Shown here: one piece after another, positions 16 through 22,797 of the stretch
Position numbering within the stretch: position 1 is the first letter of the stretch
Layout: each line of letters begins with the position of its first letter
Source: a virus
IMG/VR virus record: IMGVR_UViG_3300042305_001483
DNA: 64,000 nt
Direction: 5' to 3' (one strand)
Position numbers and translations under genes: made by a program
Notes under the pieces: model-generated
The model's input: only the letters and a program-made list of their open reading frames with translations
Told to the model about the DNA's origin: nothing
Database searches by the model: none

Positions 16-303
16 ATGCCAGGACATATCGCAAAACTAACTAAAACAGATCCGTCAACTGAATTTTATGAAGATGATCAGTTCAAGCAATATTTAATTG
101 AAAATTATATCTTAGATGGGAAACTTATCGTAAACGTTGATATTTCTCCAGATGGATTAGAAAAAACCATTTATATGGAATTTTTAGATGCGGATGCATT
201 TCGACTTTGGGCCAATGATCTTGTAGTTACAGAAAACAAAATTAAACAGGGAAATTGGAATCTTGAACACGGAATTAAAGTAGAAGTTACTCCAGTAAAA
301 TAA
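16..303 (+). CDS. hypothetical protein (95 aa)
   Basis: ORF with AAGGA SD; stop overlaps next start (TAATG). Confidence 0.7.
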   Translation: MPGHIAKLTKTDPSTEFYEDDQFKQYLIENYILDGKLIVNVDISPDGLEKTIYMEFLDADAFRLWANDLVVTENKIKQGNWNLEHGIKVEVTPVK

Positions 304-1055
304 TGTTTTCAGCAGATGCCAACACTATATTTAAAATACAAATTTTAACTGCAATTTTAGCAGTTGTTGGCTCTTTTTTTGTTGAATTCAATGTTTTAAA
401 TTTATTAATTGCTGTAATTTCATTTTACATATATAGTATTATTGGAATAAGTTTAACATTACATAGATACTATTCACATAAAAGTTTTAATTTCAGAAGT
501 AATATCCTTAAATGGATTTGTACTTTTATTTCATTATTGTCTGGTAGAGGAAGTCCGTTAGGTTGGGTTTATGTGCATAGGTTGCACCACGCATATTCAG
601 ACACTGATAAAGATCCGCACCCCCCACATTTGCTGGGATTCAAATTATTTGGATTCAAACATATTGACAATCATAGTAAAAAAATAAATTTATTTTTGAT
701 TAAAGATTTAATGACCAAAGAACAAATTTTTATTAATAAGTGGTATTTTGCAATAATATTTTTATGGTTACTATTCTTATCATTTTTTAGTTTTGAATTG
801 GTATTTTTTTCTTGGATCATTCCTGTTATGCTAATCCAATTAAGCCAAAATAGTTTTAATTATTTTTGTCATTTAAAAGGATACAAAAATTTTGATAATA
901 AAGATAAAAGTACTAATAATATTTTTATGTGGCCTTTTATTTTAGGTGATGCATGGCACAACAATCATCACCACAATCCAAAATTGTATTCTACAAAATA
1001 CAAAAAATGGGAAGTTGATCCAGTAGCAAAATTAATAAACATAATAAAATCATGA
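303..1055 (+). CDS. membrane fatty-acid desaturase (delta-9/DesC-like)
   Basis: His boxes HRYYSH, HRLHH, HNNHH; hydrophobic TM segments; DPH motif. Confidence 0.9.
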   Translation: MFSADANTIFKIQILTAILAVVGSFFVEFNVLNLLIAVISFYIYSIIGISLTLHRYYSHKSFNFRSNILKWICTFISLLSGRGSPLGWVYVHRLHHAYSDTDKDPHPPHLLGFKLFGFKHIDNHSKKINLFLIKDLMTKEQIFINKWYFAIIFLWLLFLSFFSFELVFFSWIIPVMLIQLSQNSFNYFCHLKGYKNFDNKDKSTNNIFMWPFILGDAWHNNHHHNPKLYSTKYKKWEVDPVAKLINIIKS

Positions 1056-1825
1056 AGAACATTTTTGTTTCTAGCACTGTAGGAGTTCAATTATTTCTAA
1101 TAGTATCCTTAATTGGATCAGTTATAGGTTTTATAAATTACGGTTTCAATTGGCCGATAGTTGGAATGATATTATTGGGATACTTTTTATATGGATGTCT
1201 AGGCATTGTAGTTACATTTCACAGACAGTTAACACATAGAAGTTATAATACATTTCCATTTTTAACAAAACTTTTTTCAATACTAGGATGTTTCGGCGGA
1301 ACAGGAAGTCCGTTGGCCTGGACAGCCATTCACATTAACCATCACCTTAAAAGTGATAAATTGGAAGATCCACATAGTCCAACTCACAAGGGCCTTAGAA
1401 TCTTTTTACTAAATTACGAACAAGAAATTGACAAAACTACGAAATGGAAAATTCGAAGAATAATAACTGACAAATTTCAGCAGACACTACATCGTTATTA
1501 TTTTTTATTCATTATAGGTTGGAGTAGTTTTTTGTTTTTAATAGGTGGATTTTATTTAATGGTTTTTTTACATTGGGCGCCGGCGGCAATAACTGCAATA
1601 ATGAGTAATGTTGTTAACTATATTGGTCATAAACCAAATTATTATGGTGGCTCTAGAAAATATAATTTATCCGATAACAGCACTAATAACTGGTTATGGG
1701 CCATTCCAACCTGGGGAGAATCTTGGCATAATAATCATCATAGGCATCCAAAGAGATATCATTGCGGTGAAAATTGGAAACAAATAGATATTTCAGCCTA
1801 TGTTATTCGATTAATAAAAATTTAA
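1052..1825 (+). CDS. membrane fatty-acid desaturase (second paralog)
   Basis: His boxes HRQLTH, HINHH, HNNHH; GESWHNNHH motif; TM segments. Confidence 0.9.
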   Translation: MKNIFVSSTVGVQLFLIVSLIGSVIGFINYGFNWPIVGMILLGYFLYGCLGIVVTFHRQLTHRSYNTFPFLTKLFSILGCFGGTGSPLAWTAIHINHHLKSDKLEDPHSPTHKGLRIFLLNYEQEIDKTTKWKIRRIITDKFQQTLHRYYFLFIIGWSSFLFLIGGFYLMVFLHWAPAAITAIMSNVVNYIGHKPNYYGGSRKYNLSDNSTNNWLWAIPTWGESWHNNHHRHPKRYHCGENWKQIDISAYVIRLIKI

Positions 1826-1827
1826 TT

Positions 1828-3357
1828 ATGGTAAATTGTATTATATTTTACGGAAACAGCGATATTACTGTAGGTCCTAAAACAGCAGGTCCGTTTCGAA
1901 TTGCAACAGAATTAAGAAAGCATGGGTTTTCTGTAATATGTATTGATATAACCGCGTTTGATGGGATGGATGATAATTTTAAAGAAATATATTCTTCCTT
2001 AGTATCCTCTGAAACTTTATGGACAGGATTCAGCGGAACATTTATGCGAGACATTTTTGGTAAGCCTTCTTTATTACCATTGGGCTCTAAAAGATTTTTA
2101 GATAAAGATCCAAATCATTTTGATAAAGGTGTGCAAGAATTTGTCGATTTTGCAAAAAGATTAAATCCTAAAATGAAATTACTGTTAGGTGGAGCAAGGT
2201 TGCACCGGTTGAGTTCTTTGGGATTTATAACTTTTGAAAAATATGTTGATAAAGAAATTGTAGATTATACAAAATGGCTAGCAAAACAATCAACAAAAAT
2301 AAATCTCCAATTTTACACCGATACTATTGTTGGAGAAGAATTTAAAGAGTTTTCATCATCGCAGATTTTATATGAAGAAAACGATATTATATTCAAAACC
2401 GACACACTTCCTTTAGAAGTATCTAGAGGATGCATTTTTAAATGTAAATTTTGTTCATACCCATTGAATGGAAAAAAGAAAGGTGACTGGATTAAACAGG
2501 CAAAGTTGTTAAGAGAAGAACTAATTTTAAACTATGAAAAATTTGGAGTTACAAATTATGCTTTGACCGACGATACGTATAACGATTCAGTTGATAAATT
2601 ACTGTTACTTTATGATGAAGTTTGGTCAAAAGTTCCTTTTAAAATTAAATTTTCAACTTACACTAGGTTAGATCTTATTGTAAGATTTCCAGAGATGGTA
2701 GATATTTTAAAAGAATCTGGATTAAAAAGCGCGGTATGTGGTCTAGAAAGCATTAATCCAAAATCTGCAAAATCAATTGGTAAAGGCCTTGATCCTCAAA
2801 TTCAAATTGAATTTGCAAGAGAATTAAAAAAAGATAAATGGAAAGATATTTTAATTTCTTCAAATTTTATTTTAGGATTGCCTCATGATACAAGAGAAAC
2901 AATTGATGAATTTGAAGAATGGGTTTTAGGAGATAAAAATCCATTTGATTACTGGTACATATTTCCTTTAGGTATTTTTCCTCCAGGATCTAATAAATCA
3001 TATACTCAATCAGAATTTGATTTAAATTATAAAGATTATGGTTACGAATTAATTCGAGGTCCTGATGATCCAGATTATCTTTACATAGGCTGGAAAAACG
3101 ATAGAACAAAACTCAATGCGCCATATTGTAATTCTAAATCTAAATTAATATTAGACAGATCTAGAAAGACTAACTGGAAATTTGGCGGATGGTTATGGAG
3201 TATAATGCAAGAATTTATACCAGATGAAGATATTACTCGTCTTTCGAGAAATGAATGTTATAAAAAATACAACCTTGATAAACTGAGAGAAGAAAAGAAA
3301 AAGTTGTATATAAAACGATTATACAAAGTTGTAGAGAACATAAAAAATTCTAAATAA
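1828..3357 (+). CDS. B12-binding-type (class B-like) radical SAM enzyme
   Basis: EVSRGCIFKCKFC, DDTYN, GLES, FILGLPHDT motifs; N-terminal Rossmann-like domain with LLGG; likely start ATG 1828 (track starts at TTG 1774). Confidence 0.8.
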   Translation: MVNCIIFYGNSDITVGPKTAGPFRIATELRKHGFSVICIDITAFDGMDDNFKEIYSSLVSSETLWTGFSGTFMRDIFGKPSLLPLGSKRFLDKDPNHFDKGVQEFVDFAKRLNPKMKLLLGGARLHRLSSLGFITFEKYVDKEIVDYTKWLAKQSTKINLQFYTDTIVGEEFKEFSSSQILYEENDIIFKTDTLPLEVSRGCIFKCKFCSYPLNGKKKGDWIKQAKLLREELILNYEKFGVTNYALTDDTYNDSVDKLLLLYDEVWSKVPFKIKFSTYTRLDLIVRFPEMVDILKESGLKSAVCGLESINPKSAKSIGKGLDPQIQIEFARELKKDKWKDILISSNFILGLPHDTRETIDEFEEWVLGDKNPFDYWYIFPLGIFPPGSNKSYTQSEFDLNYKDYGYELIRGPDDPDYLYIGWKNDRTKLNAPYCNSKSKLILDRSRKTNWKFGGWLWSIMQEFIPDEDITRLSRNECYKKYNLDKLREEKKKLYIKRLYKVVENIKNSK

Positions 3358-3928
3358 AAATAACATCATTTTCAATTAAGGGATTGAGAAAAGTAACACA
3401 ATCTGGGTTCGTTTCAACTTGCATACTTATTCTCGGAACATTGTTCTTGTTCATTTTTACATCATGAGGGACGCTGCTTCTTATAACCGTAGGTCCATCA
3501 AGTTCAAAAGTAGATCTAGCCTGAATGTCTTTTGATACAAATGGTCGATAACTTTTTATTCCGGATTTAGGATTAGTTGTTTTAACTACTCTACAATTTC
3601 CATAAAAAGTTGTTTTAGATCCTTCGGTGTTAAGCAACGGCATTAATACTTTTGCATAAGGGGGCAGTAAATCAATATGTATTGGTCCATGCGAATCGTC
3701 GTACATAACAAAAATAGAAATAAGATAAGGTTCAAGATCTAACTTATTAAAGGACGGTACCAATAAAGGGCAATAACTAGTAAATTTTTTAAAGTCTACA
3801 ATATAGTAACTAGACAATTTTCTTTGAAAAATTTTATCATCATTTTTGACAAATTCTAAACTTTTACTTCTTATTTCTTGAAAATTTGGTAAATCAATCT
3901 TTTTAAAATAAATGTCATCTTGGTTCAT
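3350..3928 (-). CDS. putative 2OG-Fe(II) oxygenase / cupin-fold protein
   Basis: PIHID ... PHDV ... PRISM pattern (HxD...H...R). Confidence 0.6.
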   Translation of the reverse strand: MNQDDIYFKKIDLPNFQEIRSKSLEFVKNDDKIFQRKLSSYYIVDFKKFTSYCPLLVPSFNKLDLEPYLISIFVMYDDSHGPIHIDLLPPYAKVLMPLLNTEGSKTTFYGNCRVVKTTNPKSGIKSYRPFVSKDIQARSTFELDGPTVIRSSVPHDVKMNKNNVPRISMQVETNPDCVTFLNPLIENDVIFI

Positions 3929-3994
3929 TGTACACCTTTTTTATAATTTATACAAACTTAAAATATTAAATAAAGAAAATGAAAAAGGAAAATT

Positions 3995-4486
3995 ATGCCA
4001 TTATATAAAAAAATTGATACCTTTGATGTCGACGAAATCCTTAAACAATACACTGAATTAGAAAATAATATAGTTTGGAGAGAAAGTAGTAGAGGAAAAC
4101 AGGCTGGTATACAATATAAAGAAGGAGAAAATCCTTGGGAAAGTGCAGTTGGAAAATTTAAAGACAGGACCGAAGAATCGTATTCTCTTTTAAATCCTTT
4201 TTTCAAAGATACTATTTTTGAAGAAATTATCAAAAAACATAATTTAATTCGAACAAGATTAATGTGGGTATTCCCAATGTCTTGTTATTCATTTCACAAC
4301 GATGTAGCCCCTAGGATACATTATCCATTAATAACAGATAATGAATGTTATTTCCTTTTTAAAAAAGGAGAACTAATACATTTTCCTGCTGGAGAAGTTT
4401 GGTGGGTTGATACTAGGTTTAAACATACATTTTTAAATGCATCTAACGTAAATCGATTACACATTGTAGGTGTAGTGAAACGTTAA
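3995..4486 (+). CDS. aspartyl/asparaginyl beta-hydroxylase-like 2OG-Fe(II) oxygenase
   Basis: HND...RIHYPL...GEVWWVDT..HTFLN....RLHIV, typical of the AspH-like domain. Confidence 0.75.
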   Translation: MPLYKKIDTFDVDEILKQYTELENNIVWRESSRGKQAGIQYKEGENPWESAVGKFKDRTEESYSLLNPFFKDTIFEEIIKKHNLIRTRLMWVFPMSCYSFHNDVAPRIHYPLITDNECYFLFKKGELIHFPAGEVWWVDTRFKHTFLNASNVNRLHIVGVVKR

Positions 4487-5202
4487 ATTTGTCCTAAGAC
4501 AAATTCTGATACTAACTGATGAGTTTTAATTCCAGGATGTATTAAATCTCTCGCAAAGTCATTTGTCACTTTAAAATCGATTAAAAATAATTTTGGAGCA
4601 TCAAAGCATAAAAACTTTATATTATTTGTTATACAAATATTTTCTATGGCTAAAATATTTTTTTGTTGATTTAAAAAAGAGTTTGTATCGTCTAAAAGCC
4701 ACTTTTTATAAAAAGAATCCATTTGATAAAATTTCATTTGCGATCTATAATAGAATATTTTTTGATTCTCGCATAGTTCTATTCTTGAATTTTCCGGACT
4801 AAACATTATTACAATTTTTGGTTTTAAAGTTGAAATATAATGGTACCCAAATCTAAATGCAGTATCATTCGATGTTCCACCTAGACCTAAATTAAAAAAC
4901 CTAAGTTTTAACTTTTGAGATATTAAATATCCGGCAGTTTCTTCTAACGGTAATCCAGTACCAAAGGTTAAACTACATCCCAAAAAAAGTATTGAATCAG
5001 TATCTGCATCAAATTCAAAAGACCTAAATCCATCACCGTTGAATTTGTAAGTTATTTTTTTATCTATCCAATTATTACTTTTTAATAAATTGAAATTTTT
5101 ATTAAGATTTTCTTCATATCTTTCTTTTGAATCAAAGAGATCCCATTCTTGAATAGTATTAGAAAAAATTTTATATGAATGAAAGCCGAGATCTGTATTC
5201 AT
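4483..5202 (-). CDS. SGNH/GDSL-like hydrolase or acyltransferase
   Basis: FLGCSLTFG block I, NLGLGG block II, DLIHPG block V. Confidence 0.7.
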   Translation of the reverse strand: MNTDLGFHSYKIFSNTIQEWDLFDSKERYEENLNKNFNLLKSNNWIDKKITYKFNGDGFRSFEFDADTDSILFLGCSLTFGTGLPLEETAGYLISQKLKLRFFNLGLGGTSNDTAFRFGYHYISTLKPKIVIMFSPENSRIELCENQKIFYYRSQMKFYQMDSFYKKWLLDDTNSFLNQQKNILAIENICITNNIKFLCFDAPKLFLIDFKVTNDFARDLIHPGIKTHQLVSEFVLGQI

Positions 5203-5240
5203 AAATTTTTAACCTCTAATCTATTTAATTAAATATTGTT

Positions 5241-5864
5241 ATGCAAGATTTATTATTTGGTAAAGTAAATTTTCCTCCTTTAGACAAACAGTTATTAACA
5301 TCTCAAATAATGAGTGTTGATAAAAAATATTGGTTTCGAGACGATTATAGAGCGACTAACATGTTATCTCTGATGACTAAAAATCCTATTCCAGGACCGG
5401 AAGGAACTAAAAATAGTGTTAAAGGTGAGTTTCAGTGGTTACCATATACTCCGACTGCATTAAAAGACTGGTTTGAAAAAGAGATTTTTCCGTGGATGGG
5501 AACAAAAACTCGAATCATGGCTTTATTAACACATGCAAATGATAAAAACAACGAGCATATAGATTGTGATGAAAAAGATATTGGAACATTACAGCACAAA
5601 TTCAGATATGTGATTAAAGGCAAAACCAGTACTCTTTATTTTAAAAACGAAAACAAAGATGTTTTTGTTCCAGAAATTGATGGTCCATTTATAATGGACG
5701 GTAGTTGGCCACATGGTATGTATAATTTCGACAATGATTATAAACTTACTATAGCCGCAGGTTCACCATGGAATGGCAATGTTCAATATTCAAATTTAGC
5801 AGTTCTTATGAAGAAAAGTGAATTGGTATTTCCAAAAGATTATAAAAAATATTTAAAAAAATAA
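5241..5864 (+). CDS. putative 2OG-Fe(II) oxygenase
   Basis: EHID ... DGSWPHGM ... KLTI. Confidence 0.55.
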   Translation: MQDLLFGKVNFPPLDKQLLTSQIMSVDKKYWFRDDYRATNMLSLMTKNPIPGPEGTKNSVKGEFQWLPYTPTALKDWFEKEIFPWMGTKTRIMALLTHANDKNNEHIDCDEKDIGTLQHKFRYVIKGKTSTLYFKNENKDVFVPEIDGPFIMDGSWPHGMYNFDNDYKLTIAAGSPWNGNVQYSNLAVLMKKSELVFPKDYKKYLKK

Positions 5865-5865
5865 T

Positions 5866-6480
5866 ATGTCTTATCGCGTTAAGTCTTACAAAGATCTCAG
5901 TGTTATAGAAACACAACAATTCATTGAGTTTTGCAAATTAGCATCGACAGAAAAAAAAGACCCAGCAAGTGTTAACATGTGGGATGAAAATGAAAATTCT
6001 AAGCACACCATTTTATATAAACTAGATAAAACACCAACGTTTACTGAACCAAACGGAATATTTTTTATACTATTTTATAATGATCAAATAGTAGGATGTA
6101 GCGGCGTTTATAAAAGTTCTTTTTCTAATGAAATTTATATTGCAGGTGCTAGGACTTGGATTGACAAAAGATTTCGAAATCAATCTGTAATTAAAGAATA
6201 CTTTTTTCCTATGCAAAAAAAATGGGTAATAGATAAAGCAGGAAAAATAATTGCGTTAACATTTAACGAATACAACAAAAACATTATAGAAATTTTCAAA
6301 AGAAATAGGTTGGGAGAAAAGAATAATAGGATTAACAAACGATCTGAAGGCGATTTATTCTTTAACGGAATAAACGTTTTAGATTTTCCAGTTAATATAA
6401 ATTATACAAAACAATGGATATGCTATGAACAGTTAGAATCAAATTTTGTTTTTGATTGGGAAAAAATAAAATTTATATAG
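5866..6480 (+). CDS. GNAT-fold acetyltransferase-like protein
   Basis: FFILFYNDQIVGCSG and RTWIDKRFRNQ (acetyl-CoA loop-like). Confidence 0.6.
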   Translation: MSYRVKSYKDLSVIETQQFIEFCKLASTEKKDPASVNMWDENENSKHTILYKLDKTPTFTEPNGIFFILFYNDQIVGCSGVYKSSFSNEIYIAGARTWIDKRFRNQSVIKEYFFPMQKKWVIDKAGKIIALTFNEYNKNIIEIFKRNRLGEKNNRINKRSEGDLFFNGINVLDFPVNINYTKQWICYEQLESNFVFDWEKIKFI

Positions 6481-7930
6481 ACATTAACTTTTCGTAATAC
6501 AAATTTCTAAACGCAGTATTTCTTCTTTTGATCTCTTCCCAATTTAGTTCACTACGTCTTGCTCTTAACATAGTGTTCTTATCGTAACCTAAACTAGTCA
6601 AATGCATGTATGTCCACGGATGCAGTCTAGCAAGTGGTTTTAATTCTAAATCAATTTGTTTCGAACAATCTTCTGCTTCTTGTTGCGTCCAATCATTATT
6701 AAACCATTTTCCGTTACTGTCAACTTTAAATCCATACTTACTAGAATTTTTATCAAATTCACTAGTAACTGTCCATGCTAATGCACTTGAGAAAAATCCA
6801 AGTGCAGTAAATTTAATACTGTGTAGATCATTTTCTTTATACCATTTAATTGTTTCTAATAAATTTTCTTTTGTGTCGTAAGGTAGTCCAACAATAAAAT
6901 TTAAATGCTGTGTTACTTCTTTATTCCATAATTCATTATATAGTTTAGGAAGCCAATCTCTGGCATGTTTACTACTCCATCCTTTTCCTACTAACATAGA
7001 TGCTCGAGGATGTAATGTTTCTATTCCGTGCATTGCTCCTACTAATCCAGAATTTTTTAATAAATCAACAGTTTCGGGAAAAGACCATACTAAGTCTGCT
7101 CTAATATATGCAGTATATTGAATCTTAAATGGCAATGTTTGTATCATATCATGCCATGCTTTAACTTTAAAAACTGTATCATTAAACGTGTCACAGACAA
7201 CGTAATAACTAGTTACTCCAAAATTTTCATAATTATGTATTAGTTCTTCTTTAACACACTCCATGGATCTAATATAATCCATTTTTGCCTTTCCTAAAAG
7301 GTCAAACTGACAAAATTTACATTTAAAAATGCATCCTCGAGATACTTCTATAGGAAGTGTTTCATTGGGAAAAATTAAATCTTGATTAGAAAATTTGAAA
7401 TTGTCTCCTTCAATTTTGTATTTTGAATTATTTGGAGCATGATAATTTAACATCATTTTGTCACCAGATGGCAACAATACTCTTCTAGCCTGAGGAGGAG
7501 GGTCTCCATTTTTATAATGATTTAATAATTCTAAAAATGTATCTTCGGCAAATCCTGTAACAACACATTCTACTAAAGGTGATCCTTTAAATCTATTTCC
7601 AATGTGCCCACCTAAAATAATTTTTAATTTAGGATATTTTTCTTTTAGCATTATAAGTACATTCATCAAAGTTTCAGGAACAAAACTTCCGCCGATATGA
7701 TGAGCGTGATAAATGTGAGTCATACCTATACCAAGAACCATAGTTTTTTCAGTAACAAATTTTGTTGTTAATTTCCAAAGTTCTTCCTGCGACCATGCAG
7801 TAACAAAATCTATCACTTGAGCAGTATACCCGTGATTTCTAATATAACCTGCAATCTTATAAACTCCCATTGTTCTGGCAGACAAATTTGTCGGCGGATT
7901 GGGCATATCATTCCAAAAAACTACGTCCAT
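6473..7930 (-). CDS. B12-binding-type radical SAM enzyme (paralog of 1828..3357)
   Basis: EVSRGCIFKCKFC, DTFND, GIET, FIVGLPYDT; N-terminal domain with IILGG. Confidence 0.8.
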   Translation of the reverse strand: MDVVFWNDMPNPPTNLSARTMGVYKIAGYIRNHGYTAQVIDFVTAWSQEELWKLTTKFVTEKTMVLGIGMTHIYHAHHIGGSFVPETLMNVLIMLKEKYPKLKIILGGHIGNRFKGSPLVECVVTGFAEDTFLELLNHYKNGDPPPQARRVLLPSGDKMMLNYHAPNNSKYKIEGDNFKFSNQDLIFPNETLPIEVSRGCIFKCKFCQFDLLGKAKMDYIRSMECVKEELIHNYENFGVTSYYVVCDTFNDTVFKVKAWHDMIQTLPFKIQYTAYIRADLVWSFPETVDLLKNSGLVGAMHGIETLHPRASMLVGKGWSSKHARDWLPKLYNELWNKEVTQHLNFIVGLPYDTKENLLETIKWYKENDLHSIKFTALGFFSSALAWTVTSEFDKNSSKYGFKVDSNGKWFNNDWTQQEAEDCSKQIDLELKPLARLHPWTYMHLTSLGYDKNTMLRARRSELNWEEIKRRNTAFRNLYYEKLMSI

Positions 7931-7937
7931 AATTTTC

Positions 7938-14573: not shown

Positions 14574-15150
14574 TTAAAGAGATTAAGCAGTCTTTATAAA
14601 TTTCGCTGTCAAAGGTTACTGTTTTATTAAATTCTTTTTCAAAAAATAATTGAGTAAAATGGTACCATACAGCATTTTGTTTGTATGCAAAATCTAAAAT
14701 AGATTTATTTTGCTGCATAATCTCGGAATACATGTTAATACTGTGTTTGTATTCAGAATAATTTGGGTATGTAATATTAAAGCCGCCTGCTTCGTGCCAC
14801 CAAGAATAGCATAGTATATCCGGTCGATACACCAGTAATATCCAACTTTCTGGAAAAGTTCTTTTTATTTCGTCTAACTGGTATGCCCAATCGTGACTTT
14901 TAATCAATCTTGGTTTTTCTAAATTTGACCAAGCACTGTCGAGGTATTCTAAATTTAATTTTGACTCAAACTCCATACCTCTTCCAAAATATGCTCCTTT
15001 GTGACCTGTAAAATTTTTATGATCATATTCTCTTTCTGCAATTCTATCAGAAGTATTTAGATCTAAAAGTTTTTCTAAATTTTGAGAAATCCCACTCCAT
15101 CGACTTCCAGGTGCTCCAGTAAAAAAAATTCTATTCGGTATTGTATTCAT
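14566..15150 (-). CDS. sulfotransferase-like P-loop protein (paralog of 10525..11226)
   Basis: FFTGAPGSRWS, GHKGAYFG, LIKSH, LVYRPD, GGFNITYPNY; ATG 15150. Confidence 0.5.
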   Translation of the reverse strand: MNTIPNRIFFTGAPGSRWSGISQNLEKLLDLNTSDRIAEREYDHKNFTGHKGAYFGRGMEFESKLNLEYLDSAWSNLEKPRLIKSHDWAYQLDEIKRTFPESWILLVYRPDILCYSWWHEAGGFNITYPNYSEYKHSINMYSEIMQQNKSILDFAYKQNAVWYHFTQLFFEKEFNKTVTFDSEIYKDCLISLIK

Positions 15151-15151
15151 T

Positions 15152-16171
15152 TTAATCTTTCTTTTGATAAGGTTCAACCTTCCTTGAACATTTTATTTTA
15201 CATATACGACTGTCAAATTTTAAGAAGTCTGTTTTCCAAAAAGGATCTAAAAGTATTTCATCTAACGTTTTTAATTTTAAATTAAATTTTGTTTTTGCTA
15301 AATCTAACCAATAATTGTTAACGCTATATCTATTACCTGACCAACAACAGGGATAAAACTCTCCTAGACTGTTTATAAAAACTCCAACTTCTCCTGTTAA
15401 ACAACTTTTTGCTCTTAGTTCAAAAGTTTTTAATTTAAGCGTTCTTTTCCATACTACAGAATAATCATTTGGTCGAATCTTTGAAGTTAGGTCTTCAGCA
15501 GTTACTTCATACTTGTAAGAAGGAGAAACTAAATCCATTCTAGGCTGCAATTCATCAAATCCATCATTTGACCATTTAATATTATAATATCCAAATTTAG
15601 AACTTTTGGTTATACGATACTGATCGAAACCCAAATCTTTAGCCATCTGTTTTTGGTATTCCATCATATCTTGATTAAAACTAAATGGAATCATTCCCCA
15701 AACTCTATATGTAGAATTATTGTTTTTAAAAAAAGAATTTATACCAACAATAATACTTTCCCAATCAGAATTTTTTCTATACTTATTATTGCTTTCGTGA
15801 TCCCAACCATCTAAACTCCATGTTATTTCGTCGTGCTCGTTTAATATACTTGCTAAAGATTGCCACCATTCGGCTGTTTTGTAACTACCATTTGTAACAA
15901 TTCTGATATTAATGATAGGATTAATGCTTTTTATCCATGAACAAATTTCCAAAAATTCTTTGCAGTAAATTGGATCACCATCATTACCACAAAAGTTCAT
16001 CATTCGTATATCACGGATTCTACTTTCAGTAATCTGTGTTTTAAAAAAATTTAAATCCAATTGTTTGTTTAATAAGGTTTCAGGTACTTCAGCCCTTGTA
16101 CACCTCGGACATTTCAATGTACAAATACTGGAAACTTCAACATGCCAATGGTCTAATACTAAATCGCTCAT
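15152..16171 (-). CDS. radical SAM enzyme with C-terminal SPASM/twitch domain
   Basis: CTLKCPRC, FCGNDGDP, VTNGS, SLDG; C-terminal C..GEFYPCCW..CKIKC; likely start ATG 16171. Confidence 0.85.
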   Translation of the reverse strand: MSDLVLDHWHVEVSSICTLKCPRCTRAEVPETLLNKQLDLNFFKTQITESRIRDIRMMNFCGNDGDPIYCKEFLEICSWIKSINPIINIRIVTNGSYKTAEWWQSLASILNEHDEITWSLDGWDHESNNKYRKNSDWESIIVGINSFFKNNNSTYRVWGMIPFSFNQDMMEYQKQMAKDLGFDQYRITKSSKFGYYNIKWSNDGFDELQPRMDLVSPSYKYEVTAEDLTSKIRPNDYSVVWKRTLKLKTFELRAKSCLTGEVGVFINSLGEFYPCCWSGNRYSVNNYWLDLAKTKFNLKLKTLDEILLDPFWKTDFLKFDSRICKIKCSRKVEPYQKKD

Positions 16172-16240
16172 AGAACTATTTACAATTCCTATTAACTTTA
16201 GTAAAATATTTCTATAAATCTTTAGACCATAAATATTATA

Positions 16241-17200
16241 ATGAAATTGCACGGAACAAAAATAATCGAAATCAAAAATGAATCAGACATGATAACAATT
16301 GATTGGACTTTAGGGAATTTTTGCAATTTCAAATGCGGCTATTGTTTTGATGATTGCAACAGTGGCACTATACGACCACCAAAGATAAATGATACTGTAA
16401 AAAATAATATTCAACATTTGATTAATCAAATTAGAAAAAATAATGATAAAAGTATTATTTTTAATTTTGGTGGAGGTGAACCTACCTTATTTCACGATTT
16501 TGAAAACTTAATAAATTTTTGTAGCACACTTGGAAAAATATCAATGGTTACAAACGGAAGTCGAACCATTAATTGGTGGAACGATAACAAAAAATTTATT
16601 AATTTTATCAGTCTTAGTTTTCACGTAGAAGAAACAAATTTTGATCACGTTGTTAATTTAATCAAAGAAATCGGTAATGATGTTTCAATCAGTGTTCATT
16701 TTATCATAGATGATTTACATTTTGACAAATCAACAAATTTATATGAACAATTAAGAAATATAATAATTGAACAAAAGTTGAAAACAAATTTATATATTAA
16801 AACGTTAAGGTCTACTTCAAAACGAAAAATATCGTATGACAAAGATCAAAGTAAAATAATTAACAGTTTGTTACCATACTCGATAAATCCACCCGTTTTT
16901 AAAACTTTAATAAAACTTGAAAATGGAAAAACAGTAGGATGGGATATGAGAAATTTGATAAATTATTCTGAAAATTTTTTTAATTACACCTGCGAGGGAC
17001 ACAAGGAATTTGTTCAAATATTTTTAAATGGTGACGTGGGAATGATGTCGTGTGGTCAATTTTATCTTAACAATATGACAAATATATTTTCTAATGATTT
17101 TTCAAAAAATTTTATCGTCAATGATGAAAAATTAATTTGTAAGCAATTAAGAGATTGCGGATGTTTAGGACTACATACTGCATCAAAATTTATTAACTAA
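16241..17200 (+). CDS. radical SAM enzyme with C-terminal Cys cluster
   Basis: CNFKCGYC, GGGEPT, VTNGS; C-terminal C..SCG..C...DCGC. Confidence 0.85.
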   Translation: MKLHGTKIIEIKNESDMITIDWTLGNFCNFKCGYCFDDCNSGTIRPPKINDTVKNNIQHLINQIRKNNDKSIIFNFGGGEPTLFHDFENLINFCSTLGKISMVTNGSRTINWWNDNKKFINFISLSFHVEETNFDHVVNLIKEIGNDVSISVHFIIDDLHFDKSTNLYEQLRNIIIEQKLKTNLYIKTLRSTSKRKISYDKDQSKIINSLLPYSINPPVFKTLIKLENGKTVGWDMRNLINYSENFFNYTCEGHKEFVQIFLNGDVGMMSCGQFYLNNMTNIFSNDFSKNFIVNDEKLICKQLRDCGCLGLHTASKFIN

Positions 17201-17209
17201 AAAAATATT

Positions 17210-18637
17210 ATGCTAGATTATATCTACTCAGATCAAGAAAACCCATTAATGATGATTGTATGGGACTTAGGGCGGAGATGCAACTATGATTGCACATATT
17301 GCACATCGTGGATGCATTCAACTACTGCACCGTTAAACAGTCTCGAACAATACAAAAAAACTGCTCAATTTATTGACAAATATTATTCTATATATTCTAA
17401 ACATCATAGAAAAAATTGGAATTTGATGATTTCATTTACAGGAGGAGAGCCAGCAGTCAACCCTGCATTTTTTGATCTTTTATCATTTTTAAAAGAAAAT
17501 TATCCTTATATGAAATTGAACCTAACCACTAATGGAACATGGAACGAAAGAAAAGGAAAATTTTTATTAGATCATTTAGATAGCATTACAGTTTCATATC
17601 ATTGTGAAGGTACACAAAAACAAAAAGATCTTGTTAGACATAACCTTAAATGGGTTCGAAACACTATAAAAAATCCTAGTAAATTAAAAGTAAATGTAAT
17701 GATGCATCAAGATTATTTCGACGAATGCGTTGATTTAATTGAAAATTTCTTAAAGCCCAATGATATAAAATACATTCCCAGAGTAATTGGTGATGATAAT
17801 AAATTTAAATCTAAATGGTTTGAAGATATGGACGGTGCCATGCGTCGAACATCGCACACATACACTTTTGAACAATTAGATTATCTTAAAAATCATTGGA
17901 ATAAGAAAAATCAAGAAGCAGCAAATGCTAATTTTAAAAAACAAAAACGAACTAACATTTTTGACTATACCAAAGACAATTTCAAAACAAAAAAAATTAT
18001 TGAAATAAAAGTAGATAATTCACCAATCAATGTAAAAAAAGTCGAAGAAATTGTTGACATGAAAGAAATCGTTAATGTAATAAAAGTTGAAGATCCAATT
18101 GTTACAAAAAAGATTGATACTAGTTTGTTAGAAAAATCACAACCAAAAGCAATAGAAATAAAAACAGAAGTAACCGATGGACTTGCTAGAAAAATGGGGA
18201 GAATGTGTTGCGGTGGTAGATGTATGACTGTTAAAGATAACGGAGAAATTAAGAACGCTGCATTTATTGAACAAAGTAATTTTAAAGGGTATAACTGCAT
18301 GGTAAATTGGTTTTTCTTACATATAGAAGAAGATAAAAACGCTGTATACCATCATCAAACGTGCATGGCAAAACTTCCTAATACTCCAGAAGTTGATATT
18401 GACATGATAAAATTTACCAAAGCAAAATTTACAAACGAAGTTGGCCCAATTACGTCTTTGACCGAATCTGACAGATATTTAGAGTGGTTAGAAAAACAAT
18501 TTGAAAACGGTAGAACTCCTACTATCATTTGCCCCAATACTCATTGCGGGTGCGGTATTTGTGTTACCAAAGCCAGCAATGAATTAGATTTCAGAGAAAT
18601 TGCAAACAAATTTATAAAATTAGGAGAAACTATTTAA
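17210..18637 (+). CDS. radical SAM enzyme with low-complexity insert and Cys-rich C-terminus
   Basis: CNYDCTYC, FTGGEP, TTNG; CCGGRC and CPNTHCGCGIC. Confidence 0.85.
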   Translation: MLDYIYSDQENPLMMIVWDLGRRCNYDCTYCTSWMHSTTAPLNSLEQYKKTAQFIDKYYSIYSKHHRKNWNLMISFTGGEPAVNPAFFDLLSFLKENYPYMKLNLTTNGTWNERKGKFLLDHLDSITVSYHCEGTQKQKDLVRHNLKWVRNTIKNPSKLKVNVMMHQDYFDECVDLIENFLKPNDIKYIPRVIGDDNKFKSKWFEDMDGAMRRTSHTYTFEQLDYLKNHWNKKNQEAANANFKKQKRTNIFDYTKDNFKTKKIIEIKVDNSPINVKKVEEIVDMKEIVNVIKVEDPIVTKKIDTSLLEKSQPKAIEIKTEVTDGLARKMGRMCCGGRCMTVKDNGEIKNAAFIEQSNFKGYNCMVNWFFLHIEEDKNAVYHHQTCMAKLPNTPEVDIDMIKFTKAKFTNEVGPITSLTESDRYLEWLEKQFENGRTPTIICPNTHCGCGICVTKASNELDFREIANKFIKLGETI

Positions 18638-19483
18638 GTGTTTTATCTTGATTTAAAAAAAGGAAATTACGTTGCCACAATTAAATTTAAGGAACTTGAT
18701 CACTCATTATCTAAAAAATGGGCAAAAGTTCTTAAAAAACATATCGACGCTGGCTATCCCATAGCACAACCGAACAGAATCTATAATCTAAACAATGAAT
18801 GGGACGAATTAAAAATTATTAATCAAATAAATCAATGCATTCAAACTATAAACAACTATAAACAGTTTATTGATTTTAAAATTTTATCTCAACAACTTTC
18901 ACAAACTGACTCAAACATCCTACATCATTACTTTGAATTAATGAGAGGAGAAAACGACAGTCCCAATGAATTTTACAGAGACGCCCCCAGGGAAATTAAA
19001 AAAGTAATTGAAGAATATAATGTGTTGATACATAGATGGGAAGATCTAGGTAGTTATGGAAGAATTGTAGTGCATTTCAAAGAACGCCCAATGTTTGAAT
19101 TAGATGACGAGGATTATCAACACTGGACTTTAAATTACGAGCCAGGCGATATAAGACTAAATTATTGTCACAAAGGAAAAACAATTTGGGACTGTTTCAA
19201 AGACGGGGATGATATAGTAGGTGATGATAACATTAGACCTCAACATAGGTACAGTCCAGATTTTAATATTATCTTTGGACGAGGCCCTGGAAAAACTCAA
19301 GCATTTGTAGATTGGTGGGAAAGAATGTCGCCGAAGTTAAATCAATTAGGATTTTACCAAGATGATCCTAAATGTGCAATAGGACATGCTGTAATAGGAA
19401 AAATACAAGGCGACCCAGATGCTGTAAAGAAAAATATTTTAGGAGCAACAGAAATATTAGGAATAAGATATGATAACACTTAA
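18638..19483 (+). CDS. hypothetical protein (281 aa) within the radical SAM run
   Basis: long ORF abutting both neighbours; GTG start with AGGAG SD. Confidence 0.7.
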   Translation: MFYLDLKKGNYVATIKFKELDHSLSKKWAKVLKKHIDAGYPIAQPNRIYNLNNEWDELKIINQINQCIQTINNYKQFIDFKILSQQLSQTDSNILHHYFELMRGENDSPNEFYRDAPREIKKVIEEYNVLIHRWEDLGSYGRIVVHFKERPMFELDDEDYQHWTLNYEPGDIRLNYCHKGKTIWDCFKDGDDIVGDDNIRPQHRYSPDFNIIFGRGPGKTQAFVDWWERMSPKLNQLGFYQDDPKCAIGHAVIGKIQGDPDAVKKNILGATEILGIRYDNT

Positions 19484-19757
19484 ACCAAGATGCATGTATA
19501 AAGATAACAACGGTGTTGTCATGGGAATTGCCTATTGTTCCGACGGGTATCTTCTTCCGTGTTGTTGGCTTGACACAGAATGGTCAAAAAAAACTTTAGT
19601 AGAACTAGGTCTATACGATAATGAACTAAAATTAGAAAATAACAATTCTGTCGAAGATATTGTTAAAAGTAATCAATGGAAAAGTTTTATAAGAATACTG
19701 CAAGAAGAACCAGAATTGGCTCCAAAAAAATGTCACGAAAAATGTAAAAATGATTGA
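19470..19757 (+). CDS. stand-alone SPASM/twitch-like Fe-S domain
   Basis: C...DGYLLPCCW...SVEDIVKS...CHEKC. Confidence 0.7.
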   Translation: MITLKPRCMYKDNNGVVMGIAYCSDGYLLPCCWLDTEWSKKTLVELGLYDNELKLENNNSVEDIVKSNQWKSFIRILQEEPELAPKKCHEKCKND

Positions 19758-20433
19758 TGCTGATGAATTTTTAAATATTCAAAAAGAACAAGGTAGTTCA
19801 AATATAGAACTAACATATAAATGTCCTTTGCAATGTTCTCAATGTTTGAGAACAGATCTCGTAGATAAAAAAGTAGAAAAAAGAAATTACATGAAGGAAA
19901 AAATTTCTCAGTCATCTGATATTTCTTTAGACAATTTTAGAAAATTATGCAAATTTTTTAATAACACAATAGCGTTATGCGGTCAAATATCTGACCCAGT
20001 TTACCATAAAGATTTTTTTGAAATTTTAAAAATTTGTTCTCTAGAGTTTCCAAATAAAAAATTTAAGATACACACAGCAGCACATCAAAAAAATATTGAA
20101 TGGTATGAAAAGGCCTTTGATTTGACTGGTGATAATGTTTTGTGGATGTTTGGATTAGACGGTCTACCGGATACTAGTTACTTGTACAGAAGGGGACAAA
20201 ATTCTCAATTAATTTTTGATGCTATGATGTTGGGTAGTAAATTGAATAAAAAAATAATTTGGCAATTTATTGTATTTGAATTCAACGAACATCAAATAGA
20301 AACTGCTAGATCCATTTGTAAACAAAACAATATCTTATTTAAATTAGTTAAAACTTATCGAACTTCAAAAAATATTAAACTCCCGTCTGAATCATATAGA
20401 CCAAAGGGTTTAATAAAAGAATGGACCGACTAA
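19750..20433 (+). CDS. radical SAM core lacking SPASM domain
   Basis: CPLQCSQC, LCGQISDP, FGLDG, WQFIVFEFNEHQI. Confidence 0.8.
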   Translation: MIDADEFLNIQKEQGSSNIELTYKCPLQCSQCLRTDLVDKKVEKRNYMKEKISQSSDISLDNFRKLCKFFNNTIALCGQISDPVYHKDFFEILKICSLEFPNKKFKIHTAAHQKNIEWYEKAFDLTGDNVLWMFGLDGLPDTSYLYRRGQNSQLIFDAMMLGSKLNKKIIWQFIVFEFNEHQIETARSICKQNNILFKLVKTYRTSKNIKLPSESYRPKGLIKEWTD

Positions 20434-20434
20434 T

Positions 20435-21211
20435 TTATTTGTACCCTATTCTCATGTAACGGGTGTAATCAATTAGTTGTAATTCACCTTCATACAACAC
20501 TTGTGTCATAGGAGTTTGTTTAGCAAAATCTTCTAAAGACTCTGCACAATTTACATGATCTTCAATATCACGATAGTTATTGTTTTGCATCACTAATAAT
20601 TTTCCATCTGGAATTTTATCATACCAATCTTTAAAATTTCTTATGTGTTCGCAACTAGTATTAATGATAGTATCGGGATTATCAGTCAATGTAACAACAG
20701 AATGATCTGCTCTTAACGTATCATACACTAACGGATATGTCATCTTGTGAATATCATACGTTGTTGCTTTGAATTTCCAATCTTCTAAAATATATTTTTT
20801 ATTAACAGTATTAGCAATCGTTAAACAATTTTCGTCAATATCGAAACTTCTTATTTTTTCAATCTTGCAGTTACTTTCAAATAACATAGCAGCCAATGTA
20901 GCATACCAACCTGCACAAAGAAATACAGTTCCTAATTCAACATTTAATTTTTCTAATTCTTTGATAATCCATTTTTTACTTTTAATCTGTCCACGACTAA
21001 ATGCATCGTTATCGAATTCTTCGATTCTATCAATTTTTCTTAATGCTTCTACCAAAGGTGTATCGCTTAAATGTTTTATTAATCTAAATAATGCAAATCT
21101 ATCATCGCTCAAAATAGATTTTCTTAGGTCAACAATTAAATTGTTATCAGGATAAAGTAATTCTAATCGGTCAAGTAGTTCTTCTGTATTCATATTTTTT
21201 CCGTTATTCAA
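20435..21211 (-). CDS. putative SAM-dependent methyltransferase
   Basis: FLCAGWY, SFDID, INTSCEH (Rossmann-like). Confidence 0.55.
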   Translation of the reverse strand: MNNGKNMNTEELLDRLELLYPDNNLIVDLRKSILSDDRFALFRLIKHLSDTPLVEALRKIDRIEEFDNDAFSRGQIKSKKWIIKELEKLNVELGTVFLCAGWYATLAAMLFESNCKIEKIRSFDIDENCLTIANTVNKKYILEDWKFKATTYDIHKMTYPLVYDTLRADHSVVTLTDNPDTIINTSCEHIRNFKDWYDKIPDGKLLVMQNNNYRDIEDHVNCAESLEDFAKQTPMTQVLYEGELQLIDYTRYMRIGYK

Positions 21212-22121
21212 ATGTTGTAAAAATTAAATTAGACTGTCTCGGAGTATTAAAATTGAATTGTTTAAAAAATTTACTTTGTCTTGGCGTAAACATTTCTGGA
21301 ATTTCTAAAATGCCTTTTAATAAATTGCTATATGTTTCAATTTTTTCTTGGACATCATCTTCAGATAAGTCAGATAGTTCATTTTCCCAATAAGAATTTA
21401 AATAATCAAAATTTCTAACTTGTTCAAAATTCCAATTTGAATAAAGTACTTTGCAACATCCCATTCTTGCTCCTAATATTGCCCAAGTACCATATTCTAC
21501 GTCACTGCCAACAGTTGCCCAAACTAATAATCTTTTAACATTCCCATGCCACAAATCTGAAACATGTTGGGGACGAAGACCCTTGTCAAGGCTCATTTTT
21601 ACTCCTTCTCGAAATCCTGCTCTCCATGCCTGCAATTTTGATGAATTGTTTCTTATTTCGCTAAATGATAAATCCAAAGGAATATAATTTATATCCCAAC
21701 AAAAATCTATTTTAGATCTAGGTTTATCATCAGGAGCATTTTCATGAGTCTGCATAGACAAGGCAAGATCAGTTGGCCAACATTTAATTCCTCCATTACC
21801 GTATAATAATCCATTTATTGTATTAAAACTTGGCCAAGAAAAAACAGAGTTCTCGATATCTATCAAATCATCTTTGATAATTAATTTTTGTTTAACAAAG
21901 TTTTCTTTTGTTAAAAAATTGTCACCATCGATTACAACGAATCTTTCTGTTTCTGATTTTCTTGCTGCTTCTTTGTGTGCAGTATCACTGCCCTTTATTC
22001 CATGCACTCTTTTTGCATATGGTATCATTGTAACCAATTGTTGATAATTTTCATCTGCATTTGGTTCATCGTAACTCAAAAAGATAACATCATACTTAGA
22101 CAGATTAATTGATCTCTCCAT
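21204..22121 (-). CDS. GT-A fold glycosyltransferase-like protein
   Basis: YDVIFLSYDEPNA, VIDGDN (DxD), YGNGGIK; ATG 22121 with AGGA SD. Confidence 0.65.
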   Translation of the reverse strand: MERSINLSKYDVIFLSYDEPNADENYQQLVTMIPYAKRVHGIKGSDTAHKEAARKSETERFVVIDGDNFLTKENFVKQKLIIKDDLIDIENSVFSWPSFNTINGLLYGNGGIKCWPTDLALSMQTHENAPDDKPRSKIDFCWDINYIPLDLSFSEIRNNSSKLQAWRAGFREGVKMSLDKGLRPQHVSDLWHGNVKRLLVWATVGSDVEYGTWAILGARMGCCKVLYSNWNFEQVRNFDYLNSYWENELSDLSEDDVQEKIETYSNLLKGILEIPEMFTPRQSKFFKQFNFNTPRQSNLIFTTFE

Positions 22122-22797
22122 ATGTTTCCTTAAATTTATTTTTAAGCCAATCAAAATTGTTAATCATATTCATTTCATTTTTGTGTTGAAGGCCAAATTT
22201 TTTTCCTTCCTTGGCTCCATCAATTGCAAATTTTCCAAATGGTCTATCAATGCCCCGCGTACACCAAACTTCGAGGCGTTCTTCAGTTTCAAAAGATTTT
22301 TGGCGATCAATCATTTTGCTAGATAATTTAGCACACTCTCTAAATGCACTTTTCCAAGTGTTAAATGGATCTGTGTTAAATTCGGTAATGTTACTGATAA
22401 CATTGACAGGTTTGTAAAAATCGCTTATACTGGTTGCAATATCTGGATTTTTAATGTTCAAATTTTGAGTCAAATGTTTTGGTAATAATTTAACTCCACC
22501 GTAACCATAGACCAGATCATTTATCGGATTTTTACTTCTCCAAACATGAACAGTTTTTTTCGCTCCAGTATCATACTCTGGAATTTCATAATCAAAATTA
22601 AAACTTTCTAAAATTATAGCATCACCGTCTACTACATAAAACATCTCTGTATCAACTAGTTTAGCCGCAATTTTATGAGCATTTTGAATACCCTTTATAC
22701 CGTGTATTCTTTTAATTTTACCGTTCTTTTTCTTCAAAATTTGCCAATTTTTTTCTGCATTTGGCTCGTTGAAACTGATAAAAACAACATCGTACAT
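22105..22797 (-). CDS. GT-A fold glycosyltransferase-like protein (paralog)
   Basis: YDVVFISFNEPNA, VVDGDA (DxD), YGYGGVK, AFRECAKL. Confidence 0.65.
   Translation of the reverse strand: MYDVVFISFNEPNAEKNWQILKKKNGKIKRIHGIKGIQNAHKIAAKLVDTEMFYVVDGDAIILESFNFDYEIPEYDTGAKKTVHVWRSKNPINDLVYGYGGVKLLPKHLTQNLNIKNPDIATSISDFYKPVNVISNITEFNTDPFNTWKSAFRECAKLSSKMIDRQKSFETEERLEVWCTRGIDRPFGKFAIDGAKEGKKFGLQHKNEMNMINNFDWLKNKFKETYGEIN

Follow-up and report, generated by a model that had tools for sequence, protein, structure and literature searches.

A 22-kb phage enzyme island as a candidate hotspot mosaic of acyl-chain-editing and sugar-decorating cassettes

Of the parts of aquatic jumbo-phage genomes that still lack an explanation, hypervariable enzyme islands are some of the largest. 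Cyanophages encode DesC-like delta-9 desaturases (viral fatty acid desaturases, vFADs) that desaturate C16 chains at delta-9 in yeast (Roitman et al. 2017, PMC5776448), while the host recognition cluster (HRC) of pelagimyophages and cyanomyophages comprises hypervariable islands with glycosyltransferases and cassettes of radical S-adenosylmethionine (SAM) enzymes to which no function has been assigned (Zaragoza-Solas et al. 2020, PMC7029224). In the Ralstonia jumbo phage RsoM2USA, the open reading frames (ORFs) ORF347-350 lie a few genes from the tail sheath gene ORF359 and from ORF356 and ORF361, virion proteins confirmed by mass spectrometry (PMC8504454). Here we analyse a 64,000-nucleotide stretch of viral DNA (IMG/VR record IMGVR_UViG_3300042305_001483; hereafter the window), in which positions 303-22797 hold an island of about 30 packed genes, many of them for predicted tailoring enzymes. 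With a probability of roughly 0.55, this island is a hotspot mosaic of at least three separately inherited cassettes, of which cassette A (303-10528) would edit fatty-acyl chains and cassette C (15152-22797) would build or edit a sugar decoration, with cassette B (10525-15177) between them.

Separately inherited cassettes at a variable site

The packed, multi-enzyme island that an earlier, sequence-only reading had placed at 303-22797 agrees with the ORF map, and its inventory was largely confirmed by Pfam, NCBIfam and fold searches (Table 1). The genes are densely packed, with overlaps and a largest intergenic gap of at most 91 nt, and strand changes eleven times across the island, with convergent gene ends overlapping; downstream of it nearly all genes are on the + strand. 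Seven radical SAM genes in 22 kb, combined with a drop in GC content of 4-10 points (29-30% in positions 1 to about 23,000 against 33-41% in the remaining window), are far beyond chance.

The composition of related loci was compared in two IMG/VR samples, one of 81 loci centred on homologues of the B12-type radical SAM enzyme at 1774-3357 (neighbours counted over 82 loci), such homologues being encoded by at least 304 IMG/VR contigs, and one of 80 loci around relatives of the GT-A-fold (glycosyltransferase A) proteins, drawn from at least 590 viral contigs. Single-protein scans of IMG/VR gave no loci for the sulfotransferase-like protein and one for GT-A, and the GT-A relatives were found with an alignment query. 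Within the 10-kb flanks of the first sample, the commonest neighbour was the desaturase family (35/82 loci, 71 proteins, 38 of which lie within one or two genes), the GNAT-like family was the third most frequent partner (16/82), and the cassette C methyltransferase was present in only 13/82; FA_hydroxylase, alpha/beta hydrolase, 2-oxoglutarate (2OG) oxygenase and PP-loop/QueC-like proteins, all absent from the window, also recurred. In contrast, the GT-A-centred loci frequently encoded the methyltransferase (52/80) and SPASM/twitch radical SAM enzymes (35/80), but a B12-type radical SAM enzyme only once (1/80) and a desaturase never (0/80). It follows that unit A, of lipid type, is inherited separately from unit C, of sugar type.

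Both units recur elsewhere. The run 303-10528 is shared by five related loci (L001-L004 and L028) at 46-68% identity, with 3350-5864 syntenic in all five at 46-67% and 8390-10528 syntenic in L001, L002 and L004 at 57-68%, and another, L081, shares 15152-22797 at 52-74% identity, including the syntenic stretch 17210-20433 with its split Cys-rich piece and radical SAM core (52-74%), and also carries a desaturase pair, a B12-type radical SAM gene and a GNAT-like gene. Cassette B had no relatives in either sample. However, three of its genes, for the methyltransferase, the Bug protein and the sulfotransferase-like protein, stand together in a related 30-kb contig (L153 7206-9442), where they are 61-64% identical to those of the window but placed elsewhere in the genome, next to genes homologous to those at 56-57.7 kb of the window. 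This contig also has a radical SAM gene like that at 17210 (L153 2446-3510) inserted right after the clamp loader. Single cassettes therefore move within the lineage.

These distributions bear on the possibility that some 30 enzymes act in sequence on one macromolecule, such as a glycolipid, a lipoglycan or a decorated virion fibre, much as the sequence-only reading had supposed in assigning the whole island to one substrate. Tight packing with no gap above 91 nt, the recurrence of the same enzyme types at this site in relatives, the adjacency of A and C in L081, L030, L040, L042, L058 and L073, and bacterial fusions that join two of the island's enzyme types (see below) would all suit such a pathway. 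We nevertheless regard it as unlikely, given the near absence of cassette A genes from GT-A-centred loci, the low count of the cassette C methyltransferase around B12-type enzymes, the displaced cassette B of L153, the eleven strand switches and the many separate putative promoters, and the claim of a single island working on a single substrate was not supported.

The site behaves as an accessory-gene hotspot. To the right of the island, the backbone at 22889-29430 is 40-89% identical in the closest relatives (L237, L243, L253, L256, L264 and L268), which share 22889-32048 but lack the window's GT-A island end, and the anchor gene at 28582-29430 is conserved in 68 viral contigs at 49-80% identity. 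More distant relatives have radical SAM/methyltransferase arrays directly upstream of the anchor, while to the left of the backbone three long relatives encode B12-type radical SAM enzymes, AspH-like and SGNH-like proteins, three tandem desaturases and a Bug-like protein, whose gene adjoins an AspH-like one in two of these three relatives. The hotspot enzymes of relatives are 25-40% identical to the window's, compared with 40-89% for backbone genes, and the positions of the B12-type genes differ among related genomes. The site thus keeps its enzyme theme while its genes turn over fast, and neither random singletons nor a fixed single pathway therefore fits.

That the island is a pile of unrelated auxiliary genes in a permissive hotspot, without a shared or even cassette-level function, is accordingly very unlikely, although low GC, mixed strands, variable content between close relatives and shifting B12-type positions are what such a pile would look like. 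The genes are linked rather than being the unlinked, randomly varying singletons that the sequence-only reading had weighed as the contrary case: sub-blocks are syntenic across contigs at 46-74% identity and occupy the same hotspot in relatives, the desaturase-desaturase-radical SAM run is translationally coupled, the four-gene core of cassette C is conserved as far as a cultured Ralstonia phage, and the catalytic motifs are all intact.

Table 1 Genes of the island and adjoining backbone, with coordinates in the window, strand and basis of assignment
Unit	Feature	Coordinates	Strand	Basis
A	Membrane desaturase 1, delta-9/DesC type	303-1055	+	FA_desaturase PF00487, 56.1 bits (cut-off 29.7)
A	Membrane desaturase 2, delta-9/DesC type	1052-1825	+	FA_desaturase PF00487, 67.3 bits (cut-off 29.7)
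A	B12-type radical SAM	1774-3357	+	Radical_SAM PF04055, 63.8 bits; CIFKCKFC
A	HxD..H oxygenase-like	3350-3928	-	Motif; profile link to 7938-8372
A	Asp_Arg_Hydrox	3995-4486	+	Pfam PF05118
A	SGNH-like	4483-5202	-	Motif only
A	AspH-fold protein	5241-5864	+	ESM Atlas structure, template modelling (TM) score 0.7-0.78 to Asp_Arg_Hydrox clusters
A	GNAT-like	5866-6480	+	Pfam GNAT, 17.5 bits, below cut-off; PDB profile E 0.002-0.04 to GNAT acetyltransferases
A	Second B12-type radical SAM	6473-7930	-	PF04055, 45.5 bits; CIFKCKFC
A	HxD..H protein	7938-8372	-	Profile-to-profile link to 3350-3928
A	Short SDR-like	8390-8884	-	Motif only
A	HxD..H protein	8881-9498	-	Motif only
A	N-terminal-twitch radical SAM	9473-10528	-	Radical_SAM above cut-off; NF033640
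B	Sulfotransferase-like 1	10525-11226	-	Weak Pfam/motif; paralogue of 14566-15177
B	Methyltransferase	11228-11857	-	Methyltransf_11, 23 bits (cut-off 21.2); paralogue of 13833-14573
B	118-aa membrane protein	11862-12218	-	
B	Class I glutamine amidotransferase (GATase)/Peptidase_C26	12219-12827	-	Pfam
B	Secreted Bug/TctC	12788-13744	-	PF03401, 103.5 bits (cut-off 27)
B	Methyltransferase	13833-14573	+	Weak Pfam matches below cut-offs
B	Sulfotransferase-like 2	14566-15177	-	Weak Pfam/motif
C	SPASM-type radical SAM	15152-16252	-	Radical_SAM, 29.4 bits, at cut-off (29.5)
C	Radical SAM	16241-17200	+	Radical_SAM above cut-off
C	Radical SAM	17210-18637	+	Radical_SAM above cut-off
C	Protein of unknown function	18638-19483	+	No NCBIfam match; no usable ESM Atlas match
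C	Cys-rich twitch/SPASM-like piece, 95 aa	19470-19757	+	SPASM weak, 18.8 bits
C	Radical SAM core, 227 aa	19750-20433	+	Radical_SAM weak
C	Class I SAM methyltransferase	20435-21211	-	Predicted fold
C	GT-A-fold protein	21204-22154	-	Predicted fold and DxD
C	GT-A-fold protein	22105-22797	-	Paralogue of 21204-22154
Backbone	240-aa protein	22889-23611	+	
Backbone	Truncated ugd-like gene, 268 aa	23882-24688	+	
Backbone	GTP cyclohydrolase I (FolE)	24699-25511	+	
Backbone	Bax1-I family (BI-1/YccA-like) seven-helix membrane protein	27887-28582	+	174.7 bits
Backbone	Anchor gene	28582-29430	+	

Predicted chemistry of the cassettes

The two desaturases that open cassette A match the delta-9-type family. 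Each carries three His boxes (HRYYSH/HRLHH/HNNHHH and HRQLTH/HINHH/HNNHH) and a long hydrophobic block both ahead of the first box and between the second and third (about 8-54 and 141-181), features by which both would be delta-9 desaturases with a predicted regiospecific activity. The radical SAM gene behind them most likely starts at the ATG at 1828, 2 nt past the desaturase stop, and the run 303-3357 is translationally coupled. This enzyme and its paralogue at 6473-7930 are termed B12-type because the latter aligns to B12-radical SAM models from residue ~20 and the former aligns to the latter over nearly its full length; the best curated matches of 1774-3357 are HpnJ, a ladderane-lipid radical SAM enzyme and PhpK (top score 56 bits to HpnJ, cut-off 578), and that of 6473-7930 is the PhpK family (72 bits, cut-off 600).

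Both enzymes lack close counterparts outside uncultured viruses. No match to either was found by tblastn among 50,697 phage records, and in 185,579 species genomes (one each) the best match to 1774-3357 was 29% identical, in Enhygromyxa, a Terriglobales metagenome-assembled genome (MAG) and a Burkholderiales MAG, whose genes are closer to 6473-7930 (33-34% over full length). Other cellular matches, in Planctomycetota, cover the radical SAM core alone, and no other island genes were found near the cellular matches. The B12-type enzyme and its desaturase partners are thus a virus-specific unit without a close cellular counterpart.

The remaining enzymes of cassette A include several oxygenase-like proteins. 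The families of 3350-3928 (A6) and 7938-8372 (A9) are joined profile-to-profile, with their HxD..H..R positions aligned, and H84, D86, H155 and R166 are invariant in A6, while profile searches of the PDB with families A6, A7 and A8 gave nothing usable and NCBIfam gave no match for the HxD..H, GNAT-like, SGNH and SDR proteins. The radical SAM enzyme at 9473-10528 aligns to positions 5-349 of the 398 in the NF033640 profile, with 155 bits (cut-off 170). The family PF05118 also includes the lipid A hydroxylase LpxO and the ornithine-lipid hydroxylase OlsC, which makes action of the AspH-like proteins on acyl chains plausible but unproven, and the commonest reaction of class B radical SAM enzymes is methylation of an unactivated carbon. 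In cassette A, the desaturases would put double bonds into acyl chains, the B12-type enzyme would carry out radical chemistry such as methylation on the same chain, and iron/2OG-dependent hydroxylases of AspH/LpxO type, the SGNH esterase and the GNAT acyltransferase would hydroxylate and exchange acyl groups, the target being a membrane lipid or lipid-like molecule of the infected cell. We favour acyl chains because of the coupling of desaturases and radical SAM enzyme, the company of FA_hydroxylase, lipase-type and acyltransferase-fold proteins, and the weak affinity of this radical SAM enzyme to lipid families; the cyanophage vFADs (PMC5776448) are the experimental precedent.

Cassette C ends in a pair of GT-A-fold genes preceded by a methyltransferase. 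The AlphaFold2 (AF2) model of 21204-22154 has a predicted local distance difference test score (pLDDT) of 90.9, its residues 15-173 match the GT-A domains of B4GALNT1, STIV A197, ThuS, mimivirus R699 and LH3 at Z 8-10.4 (as do nucleotidyltransferases from this superfamily, at Z about 8), and the two aspartates of its DxD motif, D76 and D78, are invariant in 32/32 sequences. Neither window protein matched Pfam, in which PF00535/PF13641 were recorded only for a few fused homologues. The family has more than 7150 metagenomic homologues, mostly fused two-domain proteins of about 535 amino acids, to whose N and C halves the two window genes correspond as separate genes in swapped order, the C-half-like gene coming first; a single frameshifted fused gene was rejected on account of that order. 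The methyltransferase (AF2 model, pLDDT 84.6; 2562 homologues) has NodS, RebM/AtmM and phosphoethanolamine methyltransferases as its top Foldseek matches, and PDB profile searches with the methyltransferase and GT-A families gave nothing usable. In another lineage, GT-A heads a variable radical SAM array that follows immediately on a conserved block with three fibre-like genes among its members, and no families of that block were found in the window.

By the proposed reading, the two GT-A transferases would add sugars, the class I methyltransferase would methylate, and the variable SPASM/twitch radical SAM array would edit the sugar, on an acceptor that is perhaps a virion protein or a glycan of the cell envelope. 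A glycan is favoured because two GT-A proteins accompany a methyltransferase that is structurally nearest to enzymes methylating sugars or small amines. The 95-aa Cys-rich ORF at 19470-19757 lies directly 5' of a radical SAM core without such a domain, with an overlap of 8 nt, and the same split occurs in L081 (12081-13044); the pair seems to divide between two genes the N-terminal-twitch architecture that is fused in 9473-10528.

Cassette B is the least well assigned. Its sulfotransferase-like proteins belong to a rare family, with 206 of 1.84 billion cluster representatives, and score 18.4 bits against PF13469/PF00685 (cut-off 27). They have a TGAPGSxWS motif resembling a P-loop and one His that is invariant, and a PDB search with a profile built from 26 sequences gave no match. 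NCBIfam gave no match for the sulfotransferase-like proteins or the Bug protein and only chance-level scores of 15-18 bits for the two methyltransferases, while the GATase is nearest to gamma-glutamyl-CDP-amidate hydrolase (65 bits, cut-off 250). The hydrophobic N-terminus of the Bug protein ends in AFA, an export signal, and no TctA/TctB partner was found among the ORFs scanned. In two related contigs the same hotspot has an AspH-like and a Bug/TctC-like gene that are divergently paired (L312 9055-10434 and L314 12840-14218), so a Bug-type protein may be a regular partner rather than a stray uptake gene. In Pseudomonadota and Acidobacteriota, Sulfotransfer_3 is fused to Asp_Arg_Hydrox, often together with DUF4915/TIGR03032, a Rosetta-stone link between two enzyme types that stand side by side in the island, and a hint, therefore, that hydroxylation and sulfation may go together.

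The inventory of the sequence-only reading thus stands for the two desaturases, the seven radical SAM enzymes, Asp_Arg_Hydrox, the AspH-fold protein, the GATase, Bug, the GT-A proteins and the methyltransferase at 20435; SGNH, SDR and 8881-9498 are known by motif only, and GNAT, the sulfotransferase-like proteins (whose profile found no PDB match), the free SPASM domain and the methyltransferases at 11228 and 13833 by weak matches.

Several points weigh against the proposed chemistry. All of the substrates and products are ones that we infer, next to the gene content, folds, motifs, synteny, independent cassette distribution and hotspot position that are observed. The two enzymes named as B12-type have a radical SAM core with CxxxCxxC, as intact as in all seven of the island, but no match to the Pfam B12-binding domain, and no radical SAM enzyme of the island reaches a curated equivalog cut-off in NCBIfam. 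AspH-type hydroxylases and SPASM/twitch radical SAM enzymes act on peptides at least as frequently as on lipids or sugars, and the best Foldseek matches of GT-A, with weak scores, are the peptide-glycosylating ppGalNAcT and SunS/ThuS and PBCV-1 A64R, which acts on a capsid protein. The 10-kb flanks bound the co-occurrence counts, the six loci in which A and C are adjacent may reflect a functional link between them, and the window's island lies about 22 kb from its tail fibre gene, unlike the fibre-adjacent layout seen elsewhere.

Some of these points would suit hypermodification of proteins or peptides, either of virion proteins or in the manner of ribosomally synthesised and post-translationally modified peptides (RiPPs), as in proteusin and glycocin maturation. 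Secondary NCBIfam matches to RiPP radical SAM maturases, the GT-A matches just given, the numerous AspH-fold proteins and the Nif11 leader domains of some bacterial AspH clusters agree with it. However, no precursor-like small ORF was found in the island and, with no intergenic gap above 91 nt, there is no space for a hidden precursor gene; NHLP, Nif11, PqqD and RRE domains were absent from the Pfam and NCBIfam scans of the island ORFs, the RiPP-family scores were all far below cut-off, and delta-9 membrane desaturases, the tightest partners of the B12-type enzymes, are lipid enzymes. It therefore seems improbable, to much the same degree as a single pathway. The same scans bear out the sequence-only reading in its statement that neither nonribosomal peptide synthetase/polyketide synthase domains nor a precursor peptide are present, none being seen in the island ORFs.

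An extension of the proposed mosaic, which we hold to be possible though doubtful, is that the phage-only desaturase/B12-type pathway yields a new acyl chain (for example, methyl-branched and unsaturated) in infected membranes and, separately, that cassette C carries out radical sugar editing, undescribed for any virus, both across hundreds of uncultured aquatic jumbo phages.

Phage identity, backbone genes and candidate promoters

The window is phage DNA, encoding a clamp loader, a tail fibre (1846 amino acids), a virion protein, a Lon-like protease, ClpP, PhoH, a GH19 endolysin and a holin, and no tRNA genes were found in it. The clamp loader is 55% identical to that of the Pseudomonas jumbo phage PA5oct and 47% to that of the Agrobacterium phage Atu_ph07, and related contigs reach 331 kb (estimated completeness 93%), so the window's genome is probably jumbo-sized; contigs of up to 167 kb encode the window's proteins. 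Its source is probably an uncultured jumbo myophage with a genome of about 300 kb and PA5oct/Atu_ph07-type replication genes, and the host is probably not a cyanobacterium. Megablast searches with the island and with 40-60 kb against the 50,697 phage records gave no match, and PHROGs assigned ten functionally unknown island ORFs to no family. The tail fibre gene lies at 44885-50425, and none was found in 1-22797. Both a ClpP subunit (37412-37996) and a 758-aa Lon-like ATP-dependent protease (61379-63655) are encoded by the phage, and NCBIfam gave no match for the products of 38999-39682, 25522-26256, 22889-23611, 57411-58157 and 54901-55962.

Sugar-supply genes outside the island had been proposed by the sequence-only reading, and of these the ugd-like gene is present, though truncated and in the backbone, whereas GT2 and cytidylyltransferase genes were not found among the ORFs scanned. 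The UDP-glucose dehydrogenase-like product of the ugd-like gene consists of part of the N domain and the central domain and lacks the C-terminal domain; the short form is conserved in six related contigs at 57-61% identity and is therefore not an assembly artefact.

FolE and a 6-pyruvoyl-tetrahydropterin synthase (PTPS)/QueD-like gene (38487-38996) lie 13 kb apart, a pair that suggests a partial pterin or 7-deazaguanine route. With these two genes at hand, the radical SAM enzymes, GT-A proteins and methyltransferases might instead modify nucleotides or the phage DNA, and the top match of 16241-17200 is viperin-like (57.8 bits) and PP-loop/QueC-like genes recur in related islands. We consider this very improbable, as no QueC, QueE or DpdA was recognised among the window ORFs scanned, the viperin match covers the radical SAM core only (cut-off 180), FolE belongs to the syntenic backbone and not to the island, and the desaturases, SGNH and Bug do not fit.

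Upstream gaps contain the motif TAAATA(T), a candidate phage promoter element, about ten times as often as expected (15 of 40 gaps, against 1.5). At 3995, 4483 (-) and 22105 (-) it precedes the gene start by 24-38 nt, with the same spacing before the virion gene at 42169, the gene at 38058, PhoH at 56004 (-) and the gene at 56897, and its positions in and at the edge of the island include 3967, 5227 (-), 13800 (-) and 22829 (-). Since the motif is common to a virion gene and to island units, late expression of the island is possible. The T4 late promoter TATAAATA is depleted in the window, with 3 matches against 11.7 expected. Near-consensus sigma-70-type promoters stand upstream of 30861 (TTGACA-N17-TATACT), 39909 and 60523, which suggests host-polymerase-dependent transcription units in the backbone.

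Comparison with known systems

A full-text literature search found no paper joining phage, radical SAM, fatty acid desaturase and B12, and a search for B12-binding radical SAM enzymes as phage auxiliary genes matched only an unrelated paper. The window adds the joint presence of all three cassette types in a PA5oct/Atu_ph07-like backbone, the test of the independence of A and C, the hotspot comparison and the Bug-linked cassette. The island is now split into separately testable units, and the cultured RsoM2USA, which carries the sugar cassette, is a possible bench model. If the products were new lipids or radical-edited glycans, they would widen the known repertoire of phage envelope remodelling and virion decoration and add new radical SAM chemistry.

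Virus-encoded GT-A enzymes, sometimes with a methyltransferase, act on structural proteins in the case of PBCV-1 A64R and in mycobacteriophage capsid and tail glycosylation (Freeman et al. 2023, as cited in PMC12801897). A64R is among the Foldseek matches of the window's GT-A, but weakly so (E about 1e-3; TM 0.27-0.38 depending on normalisation), and radical SAM enzymes are not known to take part in those systems, unlike in cassette C. A closer match is RsoM2USA (MG752970; PMC8504454), the only phage among the 50,697 records, and the only cultured match, to encode GT-A relatives. Its ORF350, ORF349, ORF348 and ORF347 are a GT-A protein, a radical SAM enzyme, a second GT-A protein and a methyltransferase with 30-43% identity to the window; however, the gene order differs, all four are annotated as hypothetical, and no desaturase/B12-type cassette lies near that locus.

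The HRC resembles the window in being a large, non-syntenic island of a big aquatic myophage in which glycosyltransferase and radical SAM cassettes come and go between close relatives. It is, however, defined by its position between VrlC and gp14 and by internal tail fibre genes, whereas the window's island has no fibre gene and stands in a PA5oct/Atu_ph07-like backbone, and the desaturase/B12-type unit does not appear in the HRC paper (PMC7029224).

Among class B radical SAM enzymes of lipid pathways, HpnJ, HpnP/HpnR and the ladderane-associated TIGR04072 are in the best-scoring curated families for both B12-type enzymes, with which they appear to share an N-terminal Rossmann-like domain followed by the CxxxCxxC core. 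The scores against these are only 50-56 bits, with cut-offs of 360-578 (50-72 bits and 360-600 when PhpK is included), and the viral enzymes form a group of their own.

Finally, the window's desaturases and the vFADs (PMC5776448) are alike as phage-borne membrane di-iron enzymes with three delta-9 His boxes. A tblastn search of the 50,697 phage records (E <= 1e-5) with the window's desaturases matched only two Acinetobacter phage records at 27% identity, and the desaturases are therefore not vFAD orthologues in the sense of vFAD families I and II. In contrast to the vFADs, they form two divergent copies coupled to a B12-type radical SAM enzyme, amid hydroxylase, esterase and acyltransferase genes.

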